From a virus, in IMG/VR virus record IMGVR_UViG_3300029822_000001, positions 58,968-122,967 of that record: 64,000 nucleotides of DNA, one strand, 5' to 3'. The notes beneath the pieces were generated by a model. It was not told where the DNA came from. It ran no database searches and worked only from the letters and a program-made list of their open reading frames with translations. Shown piece after piece: positions 4,293 to 63,111 of this stretch. The position numbers and the translations under genes are program-made. Position 1 is the stretch's first letter; each line of letters opens with the position of its first letter.

Positions 4293-4874
4293 CTAGTCTA
4301 AATATTCAGTTTCTTGGTCTTCTGGACGTACCTCATCGCTACTATCCTCATCACTAATAAGGCCATCTTCTTTAGGTCCTTGGGATTCCAACTGCCTACG
4401 ATATGAGATGTCCGAACTAATTTGGTCAGTAACCTTTGCAATATTGGCATCAATGTCATTACTAACATGATTAGGGTACCCTGCTTGTTCAGCAGTCAAT
4501 ACAATATTATTGTACCTGTAGAAGTCCTTTGGTACATCAACAAATAGCTTACCAGTACCAATAAATTCACCAAACTCTAGCAAACTAATGGGACTCTTAG
4601 TGTCTCCCTGGATATGCATGAAAATGTAATCACAGCTGGCTAAACGTTCTTGTTCCCACTTAATCTGTTCCTCTTCCATATCTGGAGTAAAGTCTTCCGT
4701 TCTACGTGGATTGTAGAAGGCAATTGGCTGGTTAGTACGACGAGCAATTTGAGAAGCTACAGCATCTTGCCAAGGCTTAGCTTTTCCCATCTCAATAGAC
4801 CCTGCCAGGAAAATAGAAATCTCATCTGGATTAGGGAAAAGGTCACTTGGTGCTTGAATAACATGGTATATCAT
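4293..4874 (-). CDS. nucleoside 2-deoxyribosyltransferase-like protein
   Basis: IFLAGSI...WQ, YNPRR, QIKWE, SPISLLEFG motifs. Confidence 0.75.
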   Translation of the reverse strand: MIYHVIQAPSDLFPNPDEISIFLAGSIEMGKAKPWQDAVASQIARRTNQPIAFYNPRRTEDFTPDMEEEQIKWEQERLASCDYIFMHIQGDTKSPISLLEFGEFIGTGKLFVDVPKDFYRYNNIVLTAEQAGYPNHVSNDIDANIAKVTDQISSDISYRRQLESQGPKEDGLISDEDSSDEVRPEDQETEYLD

Positions 4875-4884
4875 GTATTATTAT

Positions 4885-5055
4885 CCTTTCTATGGCTTAA
4901 TCACGTGAACTACTCGGTCATGAAGGACCAAGCTTCTGGGAACACTGCTTACTTACACAGTAGTGTCTAGCACTCCATGCAGAGGTTACAGCTATTTACC
5001 ACGGCTCGTTCCGAACCTAGTTAGTCAATTATTTATTAGCTTGGTTTTCGCTAAC
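4885..5055 (-). ncRNA. predicted stand-alone TnpB omega-RNA; scaffold ends ...AGUUCAC, guide GUGAUUAAGCCAUAGAAAGG
   Basis: Homology to the two other right ends stops exactly at TTCAC; promoter directly upstream. Confidence 0.7.
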
Positions 5056-5151
5056 AACTATAGTATATCACATACTATTTATTTGTCAAGATTATACCTT
5101 ATCTCAATGCATCTCGTCACTAAAGTAACAAGCTTTCTCAATTGGCACTGA
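4905..5151 (-). mobile_element. non-autonomous IS200/IS605 mini-element: left-end hairpin, promoter and omega-RNA, no protein gene
   Basis: 4905-5028 aligns with the right ends at 38485 and 61686; hairpin CTCGTCACTAAAGTAACAAG at 5113-5132 nearly identical to that at 61694-61713. Confidence 0.85.
5062..5089 (-). promoter_or_regulatory. sigma-A promoter driving the orphan omega-RNA
   Basis: TTGACA-16nt-TATACT with TG extension. Confidence 0.7.
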
Positions 5152-5494
5152 TTATAACATATACATGTTTAGAGCCATCCTCAACCTGATAGATACGCTT
5201 TTCATGGTCTTCCATATAATCTTTCATATAAGCTAGACTATCAAATTTGATGTATTTATACAAACTTGGATGAATACCACCCTGGTAGTTATTTAACTTC
5301 CTTAGTTGTTCAGCTAAGTCCTGATAAGTGGAAAACACTAAGTATGAATTGTCCTTTACTGATACTTTAATTAAGTAAGCAATAAGATTAGCATAACTAT
5401 TTGAATCAATTCCTTGTGATTCAGAAAATACTTTCCAGTTAACCTTATCTGTTCTCTTTTGTGCATAGGCAATAAACTTATTGTTACTCATCAT
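5138..5494 (-). CDS. hypothetical protein
   Basis: ORF; ATG at 5494 preceded by GAGGA is preferred to TTG 5518, which lies inside the IS end. Confidence 0.65.
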   Translation of the reverse strand: MMSNNKFIAYAQKRTDKVNWKVFSESQGIDSNSYANLIAYLIKVSVKDNSYLVFSTYQDLAEQLRKLNNYQGGIHPSLYKYIKFDSLAYMKDYMEDHEKRIYQVEDGSKHVYVIISAN

Positions 5495-5507
5495 ATCTGC
5501 TATCCTC

Positions 5508-5676
5508 TTGCTTTCCAAATTGTGTAAAAACGTTACTAATAGTTAGATTTTAGTAACTACAATTTAGTCATCACCGTCAACATCAGTATTCTGACTTGGA
5601 AATTTATTCCTTACCACATTGACTGACTCTTGTGACCTTTCATCTGGGTGAAGCCCACCCAGTCATAGTTATAGCA
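5508..5676 (-). ncRNA. probable omega-RNA scaffold of the 5677-6846 TnpB
   Basis: Non-coding, several hairpins (CTGGGTG/CACCCAG, GTTACTAA/TTAGTAAC) directly 3' of tnpB. Confidence 0.55.
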
Positions 5677-6846
5677 TTACGCTACATAATTCTTAATATT
5701 TTCTACTGCGTTCTCATCTCGGTCTAAGATAGCCCCACAATTATAACAGTAATATTTTTGGTGATTGTGGTGAATACTATCTCCAGATAAGGTTTGCTTA
5801 CCTCCGTAACCATCTTTGGTCTTAAGATATCCACAAACACTACATATTTGAGTAGAAGGATATAGTCTGTCGACTAAGACCAGTTTACGATTATTCCATT
5901 CACACTTATAGGTTAAGATTTCCCTAAATTTACCAAATAGAGAACGGTGTAAATTCTTTCCCATTTTTTTACTCATCATCATTCCATGGACATTTAAGTC
6001 CTCAATATGAATTTCGGAATAGGTTGAGACAATCTGACAAGTAAATTGATTTAGAATATCCTTCTGTAAATTAGTAACTTTTTGGTAAACACGTCTAAGT
6101 TTGGTTTTCACTTTCATGTACCTTTTAGTTTTGAAATTACGAGGATTTTCTAATCGCTTTCGAGCCAACATTCGTTGGTAATGAGTAATTCTCTGATAGT
6201 ATCGTTCCAACTTTTTGGGGTAAATAGCTATTTGTTGACCATCATTATAATTAAAATGTCTAACATTAACATCTATCCCAACAATTTCACTGGTCTTAGG
6301 TACTATTTCGTTATGGGATGTATCAAACACTAAACTGGCATAGTAGCCGTCTGCCTTTTGAGTAATGGTACATAACTTCAATTTTCCCTCAAACCGAGGG
6401 GTTTCTCGCAGTTTAATCCCATACCAGACTGACTTACTAATCCCTTGAGGCTTGTCTAACGCTAACTTTCCACTGACAAGACGAGCTCTATCAGTAGAAA
6501 AGTTCGGTTTGTAGCTCTTTTTTGATTGAAACCTTGGTTTCCCCTGGTTAAGCATGTTTGGATTCCAAAAGCTCTTCCAAGCTTTCTCTAAACTACTTAC
6601 AGCTTGCTGAAGAACTCTAGGCGAGCGAGAATACTGCCAATCTTGCTTATTACTAACTAGTTCATTTCTAACTTTGCTGTTGTTGGGTCTTAAAGCTTTA
6701 TCACCTAAAATGCTTGATTCGTCATACATATCGTTCCAAGTAGCTAAGGCCTGATTCCAACAGTATCTTCGATAATTGAATAAGTCTTCAATTACCCTAG
6801 TCATATGAGCATTGGGCTCAATTTTAACTTGATGAGTTTTTATCAT
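5677..6846 (-). CDS. tnpB: RNA-guided endonuclease TnpB
   Basis: RuvC I GIDVN, II IEDL, III DRDENA; Zn finger CSVC...CYNC. Confidence 0.93.
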   Translation of the reverse strand: MIKTHQVKIEPNAHMTRVIEDLFNYRRYCWNQALATWNDMYDESSILGDKALRPNNSKVRNELVSNKQDWQYSRSPRVLQQAVSSLEKAWKSFWNPNMLNQGKPRFQSKKSYKPNFSTDRARLVSGKLALDKPQGISKSVWYGIKLRETPRFEGKLKLCTITQKADGYYASLVFDTSHNEIVPKTSEIVGIDVNVRHFNYNDGQQIAIYPKKLERYYQRITHYQRMLARKRLENPRNFKTKRYMKVKTKLRRVYQKVTNLQKDILNQFTCQIVSTYSEIHIEDLNVHGMMMSKKMGKNLHRSLFGKFREILTYKCEWNNRKLVLVDRLYPSTQICSVCGYLKTKDGYGGKQTLSGDSIHHNHQKYYCYNCGAILDRDENAVENIKNYVA

Positions 6847-6884
6847 CTTTATCTATGTTCACTTCCTTTATAGGTTATGAACAT

Positions 6885-6913
6885 AGTTTACCACTTTTGA
6901 GTATACGTGTCAA
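6885..6913 (-). promoter_or_regulatory. sigma-A promoter for tnpB
   Basis: TTGACA-17nt-TAAACT with TG extension; -35 overlaps the HU stop codon. Confidence 0.65.
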
Positions 6914-13145: not shown

Positions 13146-13305
13146 CTGCTACAATAAACTTATAAAATATTACTAATATAAGTCTAATTTCCTGTTTCTT
13201 CCTGTCCCCGTTCTACTATTAGATTAGTAATAGCTACTTAGGTTTGTATGACAGTCCACAAGCGTAAATTCCTGTCTAGCCAACAGTACATATTTAAGCA
13301 GTAGT
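13146..13305 (-). ncRNA. probable omega-RNA scaffold of the 13306-14517 TnpB
   Basis: 160-nt non-coding structured region directly 3' of tnpB. Confidence 0.55.
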
Positions 13306-14517
13306 TTAATAGGCTAACTTAAATTTGGAAGTAATACAAATATTCTCACTAGCATTAATGTCTCTATCTAAAACAGACCCACAATTGGGACAAGCCCACT
13401 TTCTTACTTTAAGAAACTTTTGGCCCATATTCCTAAACTCTTCATTGTAGAATCCACATTGAGAACATGTCTTAGAGCTAGGATAAAATCTATCTACCAA
13501 GTGTACTGGTATTCCTAACCATTGACACTTATTAACTAGTCTAACCCGAAATCTGTAGAACTTCTGTTGCTGAACTTGCTTAGCTAAATGGTGATTTTTA
13601 AGCATTCCACTAACGTTTAAATCCTCTATTGCTATATATTGTGGCTTGGTTCTCACCACATCGGCAATAATTTTATCCTGATAATCGTTTAAGACATTAG
13701 CGATTCTTCCATTTAGCTTAAGAATTTTATCTTGTGTATCTGACAGGTTGAAATCAGTAGTAGCTCTCCTCTCATATTTGTTTTCTTTCAGTCTTTGTTT
13801 ATAGTCCTGATACTGACGGGACTCTTTTCTTTGTAATCTTCTTAACCTTTTCCTAAGCCTTTTTAATCTAGCAGACTTGTTAAGGTTCTTATAGACTGTA
13901 CCCTTATTTAATATGGCAAAGTCTTTAATACCCAAATCTACTCCAATAGCTTCTCCAGTAAGGTTAAGTTTACTAAAATCTGGTTGCTCTACTAGAGCAG
14001 TTAAATAGTATCTACCCGCTCTCTCTTTTATTCTACCAGAAATAATTCTAAAATCGTCACCTACTGGAATATACCCCTGCTCTTTATATCTAACAAACCC
14101 TATCTTAGGCAACTTTATTCGATATTTATCGTACCTAACAGGTTGAGACTTACTATTAGCACAAAAGTAATAAGAACCTTGATGCTTTCTAAGACTTCTA
14201 AATTTAGGTTTTCCTCTTATGTGCCTAAAGAATGCTTTCATGTTGGTATCAGCATCTATCATAGCTTGCTTAACATGTTTAGCATAATAATCCTTTATCC
14301 ATAAATCACTAGGATTATCCTTTAAGTATTGATTATTAAACCAAGTAGAAAAAGTGTAAGCACTCATATATGATTTGGAATCATGCGTTTCTCGGTAGTT
14401 TTTATTGTTTACTTCGAGAAACTTATTGTAAACCCAACGACTAACACCGATATAAGAATTAATCTGCCACTTTTGAGCCTTATTTAGTTTTAATTCAACT
14501 TTATAGGTTATTTGCAT
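13306..14517 (-). CDS. tnpB: RNA-guided endonuclease TnpB
   Basis: GVDLG, IEDL, CSQC...CPNC, DRDINAS. Confidence 0.93.
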   Translation of the reverse strand: MQITYKVELKLNKAQKWQINSYIGVSRWVYNKFLEVNNKNYRETHDSKSYMSAYTFSTWFNNQYLKDNPSDLWIKDYYAKHVKQAMIDADTNMKAFFRHIRGKPKFRSLRKHQGSYYFCANSKSQPVRYDKYRIKLPKIGFVRYKEQGYIPVGDDFRIISGRIKERAGRYYLTALVEQPDFSKLNLTGEAIGVDLGIKDFAILNKGTVYKNLNKSARLKRLRKRLRRLQRKESRQYQDYKQRLKENKYERRATTDFNLSDTQDKILKLNGRIANVLNDYQDKIIADVVRTKPQYIAIEDLNVSGMLKNHHLAKQVQQQKFYRFRVRLVNKCQWLGIPVHLVDRFYPSSKTCSQCGFYNEEFRNMGQKFLKVRKWACPNCGSVLDRDINASENICITSKFKLAY

Positions 14518-18399: not shown

Positions 18400-19849
18400 A
18401 ATTGGTCATGATATTCTCTCGCTTACTAGTCGCTTTACTCTGCTTTTGCTTGTACTCTTCTTTAGTGCTATTATACGTGTCGTCTACCAATTGATGATGT
18501 TCTGCCTCCTGCTTATCATCTTCCATGCCATAGCGAAGGTTCTCCTTGTTGAAGGAGAAGTAAAGAAATTTATCTTTAACTAACTCCCGGTCACGCATTT
18601 TATCTAAATAGAGTCTAGCATACCCTTCCTTACGTTCTTCTGCATTAATGTTTAATGTGGCAACAAAGCTACAGATGTTTTGCTTACGATAACTTCCTTC
18701 AACATCGCTAAAACTCATAATTTCTTTGCTATTAGCCCCACGTCCTAATTGAGAACCGGTAATTAATAGTACATCATTTTCTTGAGCAATCTTAGATAGT
18801 CCCTGATAAATAACTTCTCCATCCATAGAGTCGTTACCAGTTTTATGAGCACCTGCCATCAATTCTGGGTAGTCTAATACAACTACATCAATTGTATCGC
18901 CATTAAGCTTACGATTAGCGGAAACAATCATCTGGTTAACATCATCTAATCCACAAGTACCTGGCATTTTTGCAACGTATAATAGATTCTTAGTATCCTC
19001 ATACCGATTATAATTATTATACACTGAACGAAGCCCTTCATTAGTACTATCAAGACCTTTTAAGATGTCCTTTCCACTCATTCCAGACATAATCTTATCA
19101 AAACGTAGCATCTGTTCAGCATCAATTTCTTCCAAAGAAATATGAAGAACATTATATCCTTCTCGTACCATGTTACTAGATAAATTAGTCAGCATTGTCG
19201 TTTTACCATAACCAGATAAAGCAGCAATTAAAGCAATCTTTTTCTTAGCTAAGCCACCTTTTAACACATAGTCCAAATTAGAAAAACCTGTTGGAATCTT
19301 TTTTTCAAATAGCTTCTTGTACAGCTCAATTCGACCAGCAAAGTTTCCAGTGACATCTTCAAATTCATCATTGTTACCCATAAGGTTAATAGATTTAATA
19401 TCATCTAATCGTTTTCCTAAGGTCTCTTCAATGTTCTCTGGCTCTTTACTTACTTCATCATAAATAGCAGCTTCTGATAAGTTCTTCTTAACGTACTTAT
19501 TCAATTCACTTAACATTTCATCAGAAGTATCCTGATTGGTATCATACAAAGAATCAACATAATTGTACCAGTTTGAAAGTTCGGCGTCACTCATAGGGGA
19601 CTCACCATTTTTAACTTTTTGTTGTTCCCTACGTGATAGAGAGTCTTCTAACCGAGACTTCATTACGTCAATAGTCATTAAGTCATTATTACTGTAATAG
19701 TATCGACTAATGATTTTAGAGATAGTTAAAGCGGGGTCTTCAGAGAATAGCTGTAATGGTGCCTTCGAGAAAATTGTTTTGGCTACTACAGGACGATTTA
19801 AGCCACAAATTAATAACTGCTGTTGGATGGTACTATTAGTGTGAATCAC
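18392..19849 (-). CDS. DnaB-like replicative helicase
   Basis: IPTGF..LD, Walker A SGYGKT, SLEE, VVLDY, SQL. Confidence 0.9.
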   Translation of the reverse strand: MIHTNSTIQQQLLICGLNRPVVAKTIFSKAPLQLFSEDPALTISKIISRYYYSNNDLMTIDVMKSRLEDSLSRREQQKVKNGESPMSDAELSNWYNYVDSLYDTNQDTSDEMLSELNKYVKKNLSEAAIYDEVSKEPENIEETLGKRLDDIKSINLMGNNDEFEDVTGNFAGRIELYKKLFEKKIPTGFSNLDYVLKGGLAKKKIALIAALSGYGKTTMLTNLSSNMVREGYNVLHISLEEIDAEQMLRFDKIMSGMSGKDILKGLDSTNEGLRSVYNNYNRYEDTKNLLYVAKMPGTCGLDDVNQMIVSANRKLNGDTIDVVVLDYPELMAGAHKTGNDSMDGEVIYQGLSKIAQENDVLLITGSQLGRGANSKEIMSFSDVEGSYRKQNICSFVATLNINAEERKEGYARLYLDKMRDRELVKDKFLYFSFNKENLRYGMEDDKQEAEHHQLVDDTYNSTKEEYKQKQSKATSKRENIMTNFV

Positions 19850-21150
19850 ATTAAACCTTCTTTCATTTTGTTCAGGTCTGGCAGAATACTGTTATATCGT
19901 AATGGGATAATATCTGGCATATTACTGATGATATCAGAGAATGAATAATACCGATTATCTTGAACCTGCTTGGATAGTGAAATAAAGTCACCTGTTATAC
20001 GCGTATTCATCTTAGTGAATGCCTCTGATTTGTCTGAATCAGATAGTGTATCGGCGTCTTTTTGGCCTACCCAACCAGCAATAACTTCATCAATATTACT
20101 ACTACTTACCATATCTGTCAATGAAGGATTAAATACAGCACTAATTCGAGAGCCCCGACCATTAAAGACAACAGACAAGTACTTAATCAATGAAGTGTAT
20201 AACTTTTTATCATCTTTAAACTGTAACAAAAACTTGTACAAGTACTCATTATCTGGATTGGTTAGAAAAGCTACTTCTTTACTATCTATTTCTGAGGCTG
20301 AATCTACAATGGTACCCCAGTCTTGATGCTCAACACAAATCTTTGTTAACATGTAGTTTAAGGCAGAAATATTAGTATCTCTACCAAACTTAATACTTTG
20401 ATGTCCCTCTGTTGCGTAGTATTTATTCTCATCAAATGCTTTACGGTCATATTCTATCTGGTTATTATAGGCTTGTACTGCTTTCTCACCAAATACTGCA
20501 TTAGGATAAGGAATACTATTACCATTACTTACATGTTGATAGTATCCAAATACTGAAGACATATAGTAAACAGGATTGATTTTATTGTCATAACAAAAAG
20601 TAAATAACTCAGAAAAGGTAATTCTTGATGACTCTAGGTAAAAGGAATCTAAAGCCCTTTGAGAATTATTGTATAATTTGCTGTACCGATTGTATACATC
20701 TGCTAGTAATTTGACATAAAAATCTTGTAATCCTGCTCTATTGTCCTTACGTACCTTTTGAAAAGCAGATAATTGATAGTGATTCTCCTGTAGATACTGG
20801 TCTGCTCTACTCTTTGATGAACGACTCTTTAACTCTTCTGGTAAAGAAAACTTACTTACCTTTACTTTTTTAGGAACTCTCTTAGGAGATTTTTCTTTAG
20901 GTGTGTTGTCAAACTTGTGATAGTCACCTGCAAAAGATATAATAACTCCACCAGAGCGTCCTCGCTTGGATTCTACACTAATTCTACCTTCTGCTGCTAA
21001 TTCTTTGATAATTCTTGTTGTTTGCCTTACTGACTTTTCAATCTTACTTGCTATATCTGTGTATGTAGCTTTTACGCTACCGCCTTCTAAGCCTAGATAT
21101 AGGTACAGTTTTTCCAATACCGTCTGCTGTTTAATAATAGCTGCATCCAT
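19846..21150 (-). CDS. Rep-like protein with N-terminal winged HTH
   Basis: TYTDIAS...SVRQ...L...G.I...RGRSGG; position before DnaB as in Twort-like phages. Confidence 0.65.
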   Translation of the reverse strand: MDAAIIKQQTVLEKLYLYLGLEGGSVKATYTDIASKIEKSVRQTTRIIKELAAEGRISVESKRGRSGGVIISFAGDYHKFDNTPKEKSPKRVPKKVKVSKFSLPEELKSRSSKSRADQYLQENHYQLSAFQKVRKDNRAGLQDFYVKLLADVYNRYSKLYNNSQRALDSFYLESSRITFSELFTFCYDNKINPVYYMSSVFGYYQHVSNGNSIPYPNAVFGEKAVQAYNNQIEYDRKAFDENKYYATEGHQSIKFGRDTNISALNYMLTKICVEHQDWGTIVDSASEIDSKEVAFLTNPDNEYLYKFLLQFKDDKKLYTSLIKYLSVVFNGRGSRISAVFNPSLTDMVSSSNIDEVIAGWVGQKDADTLSDSDKSEAFTKMNTRITGDFISLSKQVQDNRYYSFSDIISNMPDIIPLRYNSILPDLNKMKEGLM

Positions 21151-38411: not shown

Positions 38412-38480
38412 CCTAATATATAACGACTAACCCTTAGTGGTTAGTCGCTACTACTTAAATCACTCTGAACTTTAGCTTGA
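38412..38480 (-). repeat. diverged direct repeat of 39806-39875 (gene 3' end plus hairpin)
   Basis: 38442-38480 vs 39837-39875: 38 of 39 nt identical. Confidence 0.92.
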
Positions 38481-38608
38481 TTGAGTGAACTACTCGGCCA
38501 TGAATGACCGAGCTTCTAGGAACACTGCATACTTACACATTAGTGGCTAGCACTACGTGCAGAGGTTACAGCTATTTACTAGGGCTCGTTCCGAGCCTGA
38601 TTAGTCGG
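38465..38608 (-). ncRNA. predicted omega-RNA of intact IS605-type TnpB; guide UCAAUCAAGCUAAAGUUCAG
   Basis: Right end homologous to 4905 and 61686, ends TTCAC at 38485. Confidence 0.75.
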
Positions 38609-39745
38609 TTAAGCGCTTAAGATATTTTTTGCAGCATTAATGTCTCTATCATGATGTATACCACAATTAGGGCATGTCCACTGACGAACATCTAAAGTAT
38701 GTTTACCGTCGTCATAGCCACAGTTAGAACAAATCTGACTGGTTTTTCTAGGATTAACGGTGACTAACTGTTTCCCATACCAAGTGCATTTATATTCTAA
38801 CTGTCTTCTAATTTCTCGCCATGACTGATTAGCAATTGCTCGAGCAAGTTTATGATTCTTAAGAAGATTTTTGATTTTCAAATCTTCGATTTTAATCACG
38901 TCATATTTCTCGACTAACTGCTTGGTTAGGTTATGCAGGTAATTACTCCTTTGGTTAGCTACCTTTTCACTATATTTAGCTACCATATGTTTTGCTTTAA
39001 GGTAGTTATTGAAGTCAGATAGCTCTCGTGGCTCCATTACTTTATTGTGGTGGTCCCAAGCAATTTCTTTCATAGCTTGTAGTCTTCTACGAGCTAACCG
39101 TTTCTCCCAGTAATGCTTCTTTTTAGCAAGAAGTTTATCAAACCTAATAGTCGGATACTTAATACCATCACTAGTAATCATTAAATCAGCAACTCCCATA
39201 TCAATCCCTACGGATGTACCGGTACTTTCCAACCTATTGCATTCAGTATCAACCAAAACAATAGCATAGAACTTTCCAGTAGAAGACAACCTAATAGTTA
39301 CATTCTTAATTTTACCAGTAATCTGATGACCTGACCTAAAATAAACAGTTCCTAACTTAGGCAACTTAAGTCGATGTTCACCAACCTGACAAATATTTTT
39401 GTTGTAGGTTGATTGATAACTTTGTTTAGGAAACTTACGGGATTTAAACTTAGGGTACCCTGAGTGCTCCTTAAATAGCTTCTGGAAAGAACTATTTAAG
39501 TCTCTACTAACATGTTGTAAACTACTTGACTCTGCCATCTTAAGAAAAGGGTATTCCTGTTTTAAACACTTAATCAGGTAGTTCATACCAAACTCATTTA
39601 CGTACGAACCACCATTTTTATATCGTTCAATCTGCATGTTAAGCAATTGATTCCACACAAATCTACAGCATCCAAAAGTATTAACTATTTTGTACTGTTG
39701 CTCAACATTAGGATATATTCTAGTTTTGACAGCTTTTAACGTCAT
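38609..39745 (-). CDS. tnpB: RNA-guided endonuclease TnpB (IS200/IS605 type), intact
   Basis: K.RIYP, FGCCRFVWN, GIDMG, IEDL, CSNC...CPNC, DRDINAA; ATG 39745. Confidence 0.95.
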   Translation of the reverse strand: MTLKAVKTRIYPNVEQQYKIVNTFGCCRFVWNQLLNMQIERYKNGGSYVNEFGMNYLIKCLKQEYPFLKMAESSSLQHVSRDLNSSFQKLFKEHSGYPKFKSRKFPKQSYQSTYNKNICQVGEHRLKLPKLGTVYFRSGHQITGKIKNVTIRLSSTGKFYAIVLVDTECNRLESTGTSVGIDMGVADLMITSDGIKYPTIRFDKLLAKKKHYWEKRLARRRLQAMKEIAWDHHNKVMEPRELSDFNNYLKAKHMVAKYSEKVANQRSNYLHNLTKQLVEKYDVIKIEDLKIKNLLKNHKLARAIANQSWREIRRQLEYKCTWYGKQLVTVNPRKTSQICSNCGYDDGKHTLDVRQWTCPNCGIHHDRDINAAKNILSA

Positions 39746-39805
39746 TTTATTCACCACCTTATGATTTAATTATAGCATATTTTCAGAGTAAGGAGTGGAT
39801 TCACT

Positions 39806-39875
39806 CCTAATACAATAGCGACTAGTCGCTAAGGGCTAGTCGCTACTACTTAAATCACTCTGAATTTTAGCTTGA
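39806..39875 (-). repeat. second copy of the repeat, forming the current 3' end of gene 39836-40414
   Basis: See 38412-38480. Confidence 0.92.
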
Positions 39876-40414
39876 TTAAACAGAACAGTAACAAAGTTTT
39901 CAATAAAGCCTAAATCTATCTCTGCACGTCGTAAGTACCTTACAAGGTATCTGTACTCTTGAATTGAGCTACACCAATCAGCAACAAAGGATAAATTATC
40001 TCTTACTCGTTTAACATCATGGGATGATAAATATTCAAAGTAGGACATATCATTATTCATACAAAACATAATCGAAGTTATTTCTAAACAAACTCCTTGA
40101 AGTATTTTATACGTGGCTGGGTTATTGATTTTCATATTACTCTTCATTATTGCTGTAATCATTTTGTCAGATACATCTGTGTCATAATCAGGAAAACACT
40201 GATTAAGCTTACTTGTGTACAAAGTATAGGAACAATCTGATATAGCTAAGTTATACCCTTTTTCACTTCCATAGTCTCTGACTAGTTCATTAGTAGGAAT
40301 ATCTAAAGTACTACCATTGTACATAGGAGTTCCTTTAAGAAAGGTTAAATAACTTGCAGGGAGCATATAGTAGTCAGTATCTAAGTCGTCTGAAGCATCT
40401 ACTAAGTCATTCAT
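39836..40414 (-). CDS. putative baseplate-region structural protein
   Basis: ORF with AGGGGG RBS; synteny. Confidence 0.6.
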   Translation of the reverse strand: MNDLVDASDDLDTDYYMLPASYLTFLKGTPMYNGSTLDIPTNELVRDYGSEKGYNLAISDCSYTLYTSKLNQCFPDYDTDVSDKMITAIMKSNMKINNPATYKILQGVCLEITSIMFCMNNDMSYFEYLSSHDVKRVRDNLSFVADWCSSIQEYRYLVRYLRRAEIDLGFIENFVTVLFNQAKIQSDLSSSD

Positions 40415-47007: not shown

Positions 47008-50000
47008 CTATTTTAACCTAAGAACTGTTACAATCCCCATGTTTTTTCTCCAAAAAGAAACAGTATTAACTTTGGCACCACCACTAGCATCCCAATTAAC
47101 AGCATTACCATTCCAACCGATAGTTTTTCCACCACCAATGTACATAACGATATGTTCAGGATAAGAACGATTACTCCCAAGTTCCAAACAATCACCAATT
47201 AACATTTTACTGGTTGGTATATTACCCATATGCTTAAAATGACTGTCGCTCATGTCTTCCCCAGTATTTGCTCCAATGGTAACTCCTTGCTTTTTGAAGC
47301 ACCAATAAACAAAGCTAGAGCAATCAAGAATAATTTTACTTGACTTTTTATCTAGGGGATTACTACTCCTTGGATACATTCGTCTTGGTTGGGAATAAGC
47401 TTCGTTTTTATATACACTTTTTCGCTTACTGTATCCAAAAGCTGCCGCATCAGCTGCCGCTTTTTTACCTTTTTTGCCCTTAAGGACTGCTCCTCCAGTA
47501 CTACCACCACCATCTGAATCATCTGATGAATCGTCTGAACTAGCATAGGTTGCTTCATCTTGTGCCATAGTAGGTTCACCAAAGTACCCACCTTTAAACT
47601 CAGTATATAGTCCCCAGTAACTCCAAGGATTTGTAAAACGACGGTTGTCATCTAAAGAATCAAGAGCAATTCCCCGAGTTACACCAATATCAGTAGTCCA
47701 CTGTCCAGCACTGTAATCAAAACTATGACTAACACCCTCAATGTAGTATTCCCAATATACATTTAACTTTTTATCATAAAATCTCAATCTCTTACCAATC
47801 TCTACTCCTAGTATACCACTAACTATGATATCACCAGAATGATACTTAGATTCGTCTGCAAACCAGTTAAATAACTTTTCTGTATACTTCCTGAATAAAT
47901 AAGGTACCCCATTAGCAGCACCATTAGAAGTTTCAGGATTAACACCAGCTTCTGTTTCATTATACCCATACTTTTTAAGTATAGCAGCATACTGTTCTGG
48001 CGTTAGCTTGTACCCATTCTTGATGTATGCCTTAATTATCTCATAAGCCTGTTTAGACCCTAAAGTATAGTTGAACAGGGACATTAGTTCTAAGGCAGCC
48101 TTTTTAGGATGTGCTTTAATAGAGGCATTACTCTTGAGGTACTTAGTACTTCTAGCTAAGTTACCATTAGTTGGATTATAATTAGGAGCAATAACACTTA
48201 AATACCCACTAATAGGTAGTTTATCCTTAGTACTTGCTACTTTGTACTTAGAGTACAATAAGTCTGCCATACCCTTACTAATTTTATGCTCATAACCAGA
48301 GCTAGACTTCTGAATATCCTTTAACTTATCTTCTTTGCTTCCAGAACCTTTTAATATGCTAATAACAGCATTGTACTCACCACTGCCTCCGTAGTTACTA
48401 GGAATAGTTAAACTGGCATCTGACTTCTTTTCTGACCTTGTACGCTTTTTCTTACCCTCTTTAGCAGTATTAAAGGCATTTTCTAGGCTTTCATATGGAG
48501 GATAATGTAAAGAAGCTTGCTGTTCAGTAGTCCCCTCACTAGATGGAACAGTACTATTACTGGACCTTTGTGCAGCGTCATCATTCGTAGAACCTAAGTA
48601 ACCCTTAACCTCTAAAGCGTAGTAAAAGTTACCACCATTTTTGTACAGGTATTCCTTACCGTATTTTCTGGATAATGTCGTGATGTACTTACTAGTAACA
48701 GCACTAGGATTACCATGAGTCTTGGCGTATGATTTTGAGTACTCTTCAGCATCATTTAAGGAAAATGATGAATCCTTATTGTTACTTTCCTTATTAAAAA
48801 ATCCATATCCGCCATATTGATAAGAATGAACTACTGACAGTTTATCATCAACTTTTGGTGACAAACTTTTGCCTTTCTTTTCACCCGCTTTTAAGTAATC
48901 TACTAAGTTTTCAATAGATGCTTTCTTAGTTTTGGAGTCCTCACCAAGATTACCCTTAGTATTTGCAATATCATTCTTACCTGCTTGTTTACTTTCCTGC
49001 TGTAGAATAGCCATTACATAAGGTAACCAGTCAGAAGCCTTCTTGTCCTCACATACTTTCTTAGCTAGAGAATAATAAGACTTAACCTTTGAAGATAAAT
49101 TAACATTAGTATTATTTATCTCTTCTGAATCCTTACTAGACTCCCCCTTGTTACCATTGAAGTAATCACAGGATACTTCCATGACCTTATATAAGTATTT
49201 TTGTATTAAATCTAAGTTAGTTAAAGGTGCCAGATGTCCTGACCAACCACCAGAGTAAGTTTCTGACCCATACCCACTATAAGCAAGTAACTTAAATATA
49301 GATGCTTGGTCTTCATCTGTTACATTAGTCTGGTCATTAATAATAGCATCTGGTGACAAACTTACAACATCTAAAGCATTCCAAGCTTCTGGGTCATAAG
49401 GTGTTGGACGATAGTTAAAGGTTGCAACCCCATCCTCATGAGTCCAAAAATACTCGTTAAAAGGCTTAGCAGACAATCCATCAATCATCTTATATACACT
49501 CATGTTAGGGTTCTGATACTGATTATAAGAACCCGTCATCATGGACTCATCTCTGTTTTCCTGCAAATTTAACTTTATTAAGTTAGTAAGCTTATTCATT
49601 AACTGACCATCATAATAGTTGTAATTTACAAAGTCTCCATCTTGATTTAGCACAAACCTATTCCACACCTGTTGAATAATATTAGCAGAGGTTCTTTGAG
49701 AGAATCTAATACCTTTCTTTTCTTCATCAGGTATCATTTGATATCCACTTAAGGAAGAAGTTAGTTCAGAAAAAGTATCCAGGTTAAGATTAAGAGGTAC
49801 CTTAGCCATACCTTGACCAGCAATGGTATATACCCGCTCATTACTACCCGAGGTAGTTGCCTTAGTAATACTACTTATTAACCCTGTCATTAAAGTAGAA
49901 GTTTGTACATCAGAAGAACTCTGATAGCCACTTGCATTTAATTCGGACCATACCTTAGCATCAATTCTAATGTAATCATTAGGAGATAGTACACTGTCCC

Positions 50001-61665: not shown

Positions 61666-61809
61666 TATATACCTCCTTATTTACTGTGAACTACTCGTCA
61701 CTAAAGTAACGAGCTTCTAGGAACACTGCATACTTACACGACAGTGTCTAGCACTCTGTGCAGAGGTTACAGCTATTTACTAAGGGCCGTTCCGGCCCAA
61801 TTTAGTCGT
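61666..61809 (-). ncRNA. predicted omega-RNA; guide AGUAAAUAAGGAGGUAUAUA
   Basis: Homologous to 38485 and 4905 scaffolds. Confidence 0.7.
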
Positions 61810-63111
61810 TTACGCGTTTAAGATATTGATGGCTGCATTGATATCTCTATCGTGGTGCGTGCCACAATGTGGGCATGTCCACTGCCTAACATCTAAGGTA
61901 TGTTTGCCATCATCATAGCCACAATTAGAACAAATTTGACTAGTTTTTCTAGGATTAACAGTGACTAACTGTTTTCCATACCAAGCACACTTATATTCTA
62001 GTTGAGAATGCAGTTCTCACCAAGCTTGATTAGCAATTGCCCGAGCTAGCTTATGATTCTTAAGAAGATTTTTGGTTTTCAAATCCTCTATTTTAATCAC
62101 ATCATATTGCTCTACTAACTGTTTGGTTAGGATATGCAGGTAGTTACTTCTTTGGTTAGCTACCTTTTCACTGCATTTAGCTACCATATGCTTAGCTTTA
62201 AGGCAATTCTTGAAGTCTGATAGTTCTCTTGGTTCCATTACTTTGTTGTGATGGTCCCAAGCAATCTCTTTAAGTGCTTGTAGTCTTCTACGAGCTAACC
62301 GCTTCTCCCAGTAATGCTTTTTATTAGCTAAAATCTTATCAAACCTAACAGTTGGATACTTAACTCCGTCGCTGGTAATCATTAAATCAGCAACACCCAT
62401 ATCAATGCCAACCTCATCAGCTGTTTTTGGGAGTCTGTTAACTTTAGTATCAACTAAAACAACTGCATAGAACTTACCAGTAGAAGATAACCGAATAGTT
62501 ACATTCTTAATTTTACCAGTAATCTGACGACCTGACTTAAAGTAAACAGCTCCTAACTTAGGCAACTTAAGTCGATGTTCATCAACCTGACAGATATTTT
62601 TGTTGTAACTTACTTGATAACTTTGTTTAGGAAACTTACGCGATTTATACTTTGGATGCCCAGAGTGCTCTTTAAACAGTTTCTGGAAAGCGTTATTTAA
62701 GTTTCTACTAACATGTTGTAAACTAGTTGATTCTGCTTTCTTAAGAAATGGGTACTCTTTCTTCAACTGTACAATCAGGTAGTCCATACCAAACTCACTA
62801 ACAAACTTACCACCATTGTGGTATCTTTCAATCTGCATGTTAAGTAACTGATTCCACACAAATCGGCAACATCCAAAAGTATTAACTATTTTGTACTATT
62901 GTTCAACAGTAGGATATATTCTAGTTTTGATAGCTCTTAATGTCATTTTATTCACCTTCTTTTAAGTTTATTATACTATCTTTTACAACCTAATGCAATT
63001 CATCACGTCCTTAAAAGAACGCGTCTTCTTGCATTAACTAATAAATAAAGGGCCCAATAGTGTCCTATCCATTTCATGACTAAAGTCGCGGGATTTCCGG
63101 CTAATATTATT
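61686..63111 (-). mobile_element. IS200/IS605-type tnpB-only element inserted 3' of TTTAA
   Basis: Left-end hairpin GACTTTAGTC; right end TTCAC; removal restores AGT TTA AAG TAA. Confidence 0.8.
61810..62946 (-). pseudogene. tnpB: tnpB pseudogene with two nonsense codons, frame otherwise intact
   Basis: Same length (1137 nt) as 38609-39745; CAG>TAG at 62896-62898, CGA>TGA at 62017-62019. Confidence 0.9.

Follow-up and report, generated by a model that had tools for sequence, protein, structure and literature searches.

A protein-free IS200/IS605-type mini-element in a Lactobacillus phage genome, a putative stand-alone omega-RNA gene

Introduction

Can an element of 247 bp that codes for no protein act as the gene of a guide RNA for TnpB nucleases made elsewhere in the same phage genome? 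The question is raised by a small segment of the window (the whole stretch of 64,000 nucleotides analyzed here), which is contained in a 122,967-bp IMG/VR phage contig with a CheckV completeness of 87%. The closest isolate is the Lactobacillus (Levilactobacillus) brevis myophage 3-521 (Herelleviridae, Watanabevirus), with ~94% identity around the mini-element. The genes of this region are on the - strand, and the mini-element is located between a 126-aa ORF (5138-5518) and the nucleoside 2-deoxyribosyltransferase gene ndt (4293-4874, PF15891), with polA downstream. The original prediction described here a gene for an omega-RNA, with its own promoter, that would be loaded in trans by an intact TnpB and aimed at the empty allele of the same site. 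All the sequence features that it listed were recovered in place on the - strand.

Architecture of the mini-element

The segment 4905-5151 (- strand, 247 bp) is a protein-free, non-autonomous mini-element of the IS200/IS605 type, similar to a PATE. Its parts and immediate flanks are as follows:

5152..5156, - strand: TAM TATAA, immediately 5' of the left end
5138..5151, - strand: first 14 nt of the left end, spacing equal to that of the 63-kb element
5113..5137, - strand: GAAA, then the imperfect hairpin of the left end (loop TTTA; stem of 8 bp, two of them G-T)
5091..5120, - strand: relic of the native tnpB promoter, GTGACG-18-TATAAT (10/12), alignable with the left-end and promoter sequence of the 63-kb element
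5062..5089, - strand: main promoter, TTGACA-16-TG-TATACT (11/12)
5034..5056, - strand: 5'-terminal stem-loop, 7-bp stem, loop GAAAACCAA (5049-5041), from covariation
4905..5026, - strand: omega-RNA scaffold, 122 nt, 3' end TTCAC, from homology and alignment
4885..4904, - strand: guide, 20 nt of flanking DNA, overlapping the ribosome-binding site of ndt (4293-4874)

The 14 nt of the left end provide the TGA stop (5140-5138) of the ORF 5138-5518. Imperfect subterminal hairpins are found at both ends (left 5132-5113, right 4933-4912), related to those of tnpA/tnpB elements. The predicted left-end hairpin was present and reads CTTGTTAC-TTTA-GTGACGAG (5132-5113); over the 23 nt from 5113 to 5135, 22 (95.7%) are as in the right-end hairpin of the 61.7-kb element, and it aligns as well to the left end of this element (61.7-63 kb). 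Its fold as bare DNA is weak (z -0.38), so that the hairpin is backed by homology and not by energy. The arms covary across copies, in agreement with the claim that they stay complementary despite substitutions. The left and right hairpins are unlike each other, and for this reason the mini-element is possibly immobile now.

Two TnpB proteins compared by tblastn with the whole genome gave no match inside the mini-element, where the only two ORFs are both antisense and have no Pfam match. The earlier statement that no recognizable tnpB sequence is left holds in this sense, with the exception of the loop GAAAACCAA, which equals 9 nt of the RuvC-glutamate segment of tnpB.

Boundaries and the uninterrupted site

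In the mini-element and in the copies L015 and L026, 14 nt separate TGTTATAA from GAAA and the hairpin, and the upstream DNA is unrelated. L119, L121 and L122 carry T(T)ATAA before the left end, which together with the others makes 6 independent sites, and many other copies have loose ends exactly at 4905. The putative left boundary after TATAA is supported by this comparison. The equal spacing that had been noticed, 14 nt from TATAA to GAAA here and from TTTAA to GAAA in the 63-kb element, was verified, the boundary of the latter being confirmed by phage 3-521, where TTTAA is joined directly to the flank of this sister element, i.e., the TAM followed by the exact guide of the sister element. 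A left end placed 7 nt earlier (a 254-nt unit after TATAT) is conceivable and was rejected as the main reading; it is disfavored because it would leave L015 and L026 without a TAM-like motif.

Removing 4905-5151 was expected to restore a normal gene end. The removal does give VISD*, but the natural alleles read VIKP* and are without TATAA. The uninterrupted 3-521 allele has the sequence ...TATATGT-A-ATTAAGCC..., and two contigs of the metagenome DNA run X2, in which extra letters between the two sides of the junction are possible, have the same form, the first (a single T between 4901 and 5157) as in 3-521 and the second (4902 joined to 5157) with G replacing A. The product of both natural alleles ends in ...HVYVIKP*, and a synonymous change distinguishes them. 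Compared with them, the filled allele is longer by 254 nt instead of 247, the natural alleles being without 7 nt that include TATAA. The difference fits an insertion that occurred in a lineage whose site had 7 more nt (TATAAGT or equivalent), and it fits also an arrival by recombination with 7 nt of foreign flank. Similar irregularities are found at other sites. At g3574, g5201 and g13578 (genome 3480-4846, 5187-5446 and 13533-13788) the element or solo (i.e., protein-free copy) replaces 125-530 nt of 3-521, including a small gene, suggesting recombination rather than simple transposition.

The idea that the RNA is aimed at the empty allele was weakened by these data. The G allele has a perfect 20-nt guide match, behind TATAT, and the 3-521 allele has an additional mismatch at guide position 3, but neither natural allele has the TATAA TAM, so that the sampled phage population offers no canonical target. 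The predicted empty site (TATAA plus guide, ending in VISD*) was searched for in related phages, viral contigs and metagenome contigs and was not found. The scan of metagenome contigs gave 0 stretches for either the natural or the predicted form, a 17-nt word of the guide matched in viral contigs only in two unrelated contexts (L027 and L028), and a protein search of viral contigs gave no relatives of the ORF 5138-5518.

Two other tnpB insertions of the window can be compared with phage 3-521. A third-type tnpB (5677-6846; window 5540-6900) is inserted at the end of an HU-like gene; in 3-521 this tnpB is missing and the HU gene continues straight into the next ORF. The intact tnpB element at 38412-39880 has ~45 nt of near-identical sequence on both sides, i.e., its flank is duplicated, and 3-521 has a single copy of this flank, with TTCAA instead of TTTAA.

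The omega-RNA scaffold

The match of the scaffold to the right ends of the tnpB copies at 38.5 and 61.7 kb, on which the prediction had been built, was found. The segment 4905-5026 has 88.5% identity over 122 nt (E 7e-41) to 38485-38606 and 82% over 133 nt to 61676-61807. Within it are three hairpins: one with loop GAA, a variable one and, at 4933-4912, that of the right end. In an alignment of 13 copies (6 solos and 7 copies linked to tnpB) RNAalifold predicted 34 pairs, 18 of them with compensatory changes, and 48 columns were invariant across all 13 copies, solos included. Between the scaffolds of the mini-element and the 38.6-kb element we counted 14 differences; 7 fall at paired positions, and 6 of these keep the pair. 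The loop GAA (about -107 to -105) faces UUC (-5 to -3) as a pseudoknot candidate. Both partners are invariant, and covariation for this reason neither supports nor refutes the pairing; the sequence is consistent with a GAA/UUC pseudoknot in the scaffold of the mini-element.

Model R1 placed the same scaffold behind tnpB in Lactobacillaceae loci, with 59 matches at E<=0.001 over 61 sources searched. Rfam, run on the stretch of the mini-element, gave nothing at the gathering score and two chance-level hits (E 3.5 and 4.2).

Promoter and 5' stem-loop

Two tandem sigma-70-type promoters lie upstream of the conserved 5' stem-loop. The one claimed before, TTGACA/TATACT, was found at 5089..5062 (11/12), with TG before the -10 box, and is the best of 10 sites detected in 4300-5700 (shuffled sequences gave a mean of 4.9 sites). 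Its predicted transcription start is near 5055-5059. TTGACA is retained in 8 of the 11 aligned solos, and in the bacterial solos a -10 box is also located just ahead of the stem.

The 5' stem of the solos is preserved as a structure. Over the 11 solos 89% of 73 cells were paired, vs. 18-48% when the partner was slid, and 4 of the 7 pairs were changed on both sides. Among 500 shuffles, which ignore relatedness and were made for the 11-solo set without the solos found later, 0 had a covariation score as high as the real alignment and 1 had as large a part of its cells paired. G-U pairs in the stem fit an RNA rather than a DNA structure. The loop GAAAACCAA was identical in all 11 aligned solos. 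In Firmicutes, 5'-terminal hairpins shield RNAs from 5'-end-dependent decay. Assembled contigs of RNA run X3 included related pieces of scaffold and module, none identical to the mini-element, and one of them spans the promoter.

With a complete scaffold, preserved pairing and a promoter positioned for an RNA start at the 5' stem-loop, the proposal of a stand-alone guide-RNA gene held up, and the reading of the mini-element as a putative stand-alone omega-RNA gene is supported at the level of sequence.

A sequence scan of the interval from guide to ndt found no terminator. Transcription must continue into ndt, and an effect of the promoter on downstream genes is therefore unavoidable; this effect could be the selected trait. 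The element would then be a mobile promoter or 5'-leader module driving the genes behind it (ndt and polA here, tRNA-Gly elsewhere), with the scaffold as a passenger or as a processing signal independent of TnpB. Besides the missing terminator, such a role would suit the overlap of the guide with the ndt ribosome-binding site, the solos that adjoin tRNA-Gly in three phages and the SAC12B solo, which precedes a methyltransferase gene and has no cognate TnpB in its genome. However, the solo g5201 faces convergent genes, the conservation of the whole scaffold structure is left unexplained, and any omega-RNA has to read out into its flank. We consider this explanation quite unlikely.

Cognate tnpB genes and solos in the same genome

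The core word TAAATAGCTGTAACC has 8 copies in the genome, 4 behind tnpB genes of one type and 4 protein-free. The cognate tnpB genes are at genome 3574-4719, genome 10092-11234, window 38609-39757 and, as a broken copy, window 61.8-62.96 kb; 3 of the 4 are intact, with the RuvC D/E/D motifs. Those in the window are:

38609..39757, - strand: intact cognate TnpB, own scaffold at 38485-38606
61676..63110, - strand: sister element, tnpB with two in-frame stops, clean insertion after TTTAA

Judged by its sequence, the TnpB at 38609-39757 is a likely trans partner of the RNA of the mini-element. The four solos are the mini-element, genome 13578-13766, genome 5201-5445 and genome 19746-19854 (given also as 19650-19854). 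All of them have a promoter-like site followed by a stem-loop with the loop GAAAACCAA. Y1 TnpA (PF01797) had no match in this contig (87% complete), nor in the phages G403, Lb338-1 or 521B.

Solos are as many as the intact TnpB genes or more (4 vs. 3 in this genome, 5 vs. 2 in G403), a surplus that would be in place if the solos acted as competitors or regulators, their scaffolds titrating TnpB off the guides of full-length elements or directing it to other phages or host loci and not to their own empty site. On the other side, the guide of the mini-element is unique and matches nothing else in its own genome, and we regard such a function as very improbable.

Three further tnpB genes of the genome are of other types, including the one at 13306-14517. 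Directly behind this unrelated gene, at window 13189-13262, there is a match to Rfam RAGATH-18 (52.5 bits), probably the guide RNA of that tnpB family.

Solos in other phages and in bacteria

Solos with this 5' module number 19 by our count, most of them in Lactobacillus phages and a few in bacteria, at different sites; the exact mini-element occurs once. The IMG/VR search returned 12 stretches, 8 true (among them two duplicate pairs and SAC12B again) and 4 false, and the solos are in 5 distinct IMG/VR contigs. The complete phage G403 (139,820 bp) has four more solos, for a total of five (L119-L122) vs. two intact cognate tnpB genes and one interrupted by TAG. Two of the G403 solos are in tandem, ~480 nt apart (L120 246-406 and 882-1042), with the 5' stem lengthened by a second helix. 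Among 401 Lactobacillaceae genomes searched, 2 contained bacterial solos, three altogether. The TnpB type itself is common in Lactobacillaceae, with 77 loci and up to 82% identity.

The same architecture is found in phages SAC12B (L002 2489-2680) and 3-521. Each of these complete genomes has a single solo; in SAC12B no TnpB was hit at E<=1e-5, and in 3-521 the only TnpB is 43% identical and has no R1 scaffold. These orphans indicate that solos can persist without a partner.

In three phages, nucleotide 1 of a tRNA-Gly(UCC) abuts the TTCAC end of a solo (L008 1401-1609, which is 19650-19854 of our genome, L014 1399-1607 and L016 1258-1447). As the TTCAC end adjoins the first nucleotide of the tRNA, the 'guide' of these solos is the 5' end of the tRNA. 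The promoter would drive the tRNA, and RNase P would cut at the junction of scaffold and guide. L125 (Lb338-1 49221-49374) is a protein-free scaffold with its own TTGACT-17-TATCAT promoter and a different leader without GAAAACCAA; given this case, promoter-driven solos may have arisen more than once.

Origin of the mini-element

In the related full elements of the phages Lbab1 and CL1, a Y1 TnpA adjoins this type of TnpB, which makes the parent a genuine IS605-type element. In the mini-element, the sequence from the left hairpin through TATAAT can be aligned with the left end and the tnpB promoter of the native element. Lbab1 also has a deletion intermediate (L127) that joins 31 aa of TnpB (residues 279-309) to the scaffold. 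In 3 of the 4 resident tnpB copies GAAAACCAA is found as 9 nt of the RuvC glutamate-motif segment (EDLKTKNL; window 62040-62100), flanked by the 5-bp inverted repeat GATTT/AAATC, and the Lbab1 derivative keeps exactly this segment. Local alignment of solos with tnpB gave no register beyond the 9-mer. The sequence hints that the 5' module of the solos might be a remodeled relic of the tnpB ORF.

Are the solos then just decaying deletion derivatives, neither mobile nor used, with a conservation that reflects recent origin and gene conversion by full-length copies? The Lbab1 intermediate would fit such an inert relic, like the decayed solo of 521B, which is without the TTCAC end, the orphan solos of SAC12B and 3-521 and the mismatched left and right hairpins of the mini-element. 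In the case of g5201, which is only 2 nt off the neighboring full-length copy, conversion is suggested. Against this view, the 11 aligned solos share an invariant GAAAACCAA, unlike the tnpB codons that correspond to it, which vary, compensatory changes appear in a stem that is specific to the solos, and the family extends across many sites, phages and bacteria. We find a relic without any use rather unlikely.

A probable guide RNA acting in trans

The reading that we prefer, and hold as fairly probable, is that the RNA of the mini-element would guide, in trans, the TnpB made by sister elements of the same phage. The nuclease gene was lost and the promoter and a well-conserved scaffold were kept, which makes a borrowing of TnpB probable. 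The mini-element would descend from an internal-deletion derivative of the Lactobacillaceae IS605 family (tnpA+tnpB). Transcription from TTGACA/TATACT would start at the 5' stem-loop, a structure that might stabilize the RNA, and the transcript would traverse the scaffold, the flanking 20 nt that serve as guide and then the ndt gene. The scaffold would be bound in trans by the TnpB from 38609-39757, genome 3574-4719 or genome 10092-11234, and the complex would cut DNA with a T(T/A)TAA-type TAM beside a match to the guide. Such a target would exist in sister or co-infecting genomes as the uninterrupted site, and recombinational repair would then retain or spread the mini-element.

Three intact cognate TnpB genes, the conserved structure of the solo scaffolds and the placement of the promoter at the terminal hairpin favor use in trans. 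Counted against it are the TAMs, TTTAA for the resident elements and TATAA for the subfamily of the mini-element, the orphan solos, the natural alleles without TATAA and the lack of a terminator after the guide.

More tentatively, and with considerable doubt, we propose that virulent Lactobacillus myophages might run a multi-guide TnpB system in which few nucleases serve a larger number of promoter-equipped guide genes (4 here, 5 in G403), cutting competitor genomes at uninterrupted sites for marker exclusion or gene conversion. Such a system might stand, as a natural intermediate, between transposon nucleases with one guide per gene and arrays of the CRISPR type, and the GAAAACCAA hairpin might be a new functional module that acts in RNA stability, processing or loading.

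Expression and loading of this RNA would mean that TnpB guides and nucleases are uncoupled in phages, and that guide-only elements could hitch-hike on resident nucleases. This would bear on phage competition in co-infection, as with homing endonucleases, and on how the guide genes of CRISPR-Cas12 separated from the effector gene. At a practical level, a Lactobacillus TnpB would gain a natural scaffold of compact size (~165 nt) that comes with a promoter and a 5' hairpin of its own. If the RNA is not loaded, the mini-element is one more decaying remnant of an insertion sequence.

Comparison with known systems

Altae-Tran et al. reportedly described in 2021 stand-alone omega-RNA loci for IscB/IsrB that are guide-only, with the nuclease encoded elsewhere. 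The nuclease family and the RNA of those loci are said to be others than those of the mini-element.

Closer to our case, the text of the preprint by Meers et al. (2023; PMC10055086) describes PATEs that often encode omega-RNAs for use in trans. Like these PATEs of Geobacillus stearothermophilus (PMC10055086), the mini-element has both ends, no protein gene and an omega-RNA that would need a TnpB from elsewhere, and in both cases, as far as that text goes, they co-exist with many tnpB elements without tnpA. Unlike them as described there, the mini-element resides in virulent Lactobacillus Herelleviridae phages, in a genome without a TnpA match. Where the ORF would be, it has a conserved promoter of the sigma-70 type and a 5' stem-loop whose loop is invariant, a comparison with the PATEs of PMC10055086 that was made by text alone.

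For the omega-RNA of ISDra2 TnpB, the sections of Nakagawa et al. (2023; PMC10097598) used here state that 116 nt suffice and that the 5' part overlapping the ORF is dispensable, and place a 3-bp pseudoknot between -5..-3 and -105..-103. Similarly to the ISDra2 RNA as given in that paper (PMC10097598), the scaffold of the mini-element is ~116-122 nt long and ends at the right end, its guide comes from the flank, and the candidate GAA/UUC pair occupies like positions. The TAM is different, T(T/A)TAA in the family of the mini-element and TTGAT in ISDra2 (PMC10097598), and the two are likened by layout, not by sequence.

The proposed cutting of the element-less allele in a co-infecting genome, followed by gene conversion or marker exclusion, resembles what the text of PMC13565253 presents for free-standing homing endonucleases of T4- and SPO1-type phages. 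Unlike in those enzymes, going by the same text, recognition would depend here on an RNA guide and a TAM, with guide and nuclease encoded by different genes.

No paper on stand-alone omega-RNA genes in phages was among those that the literature searches listed. PATEs with an omega-RNA used in trans are already known from bacteria, and by its sequence the mini-element is a putative member of that kind. What is variant in it, as far as the sequence tells, is the combination of an apparently dedicated promoter, an invariant 5' hairpin, the residence in virulent phages and solos that equal or outnumber the nucleases.
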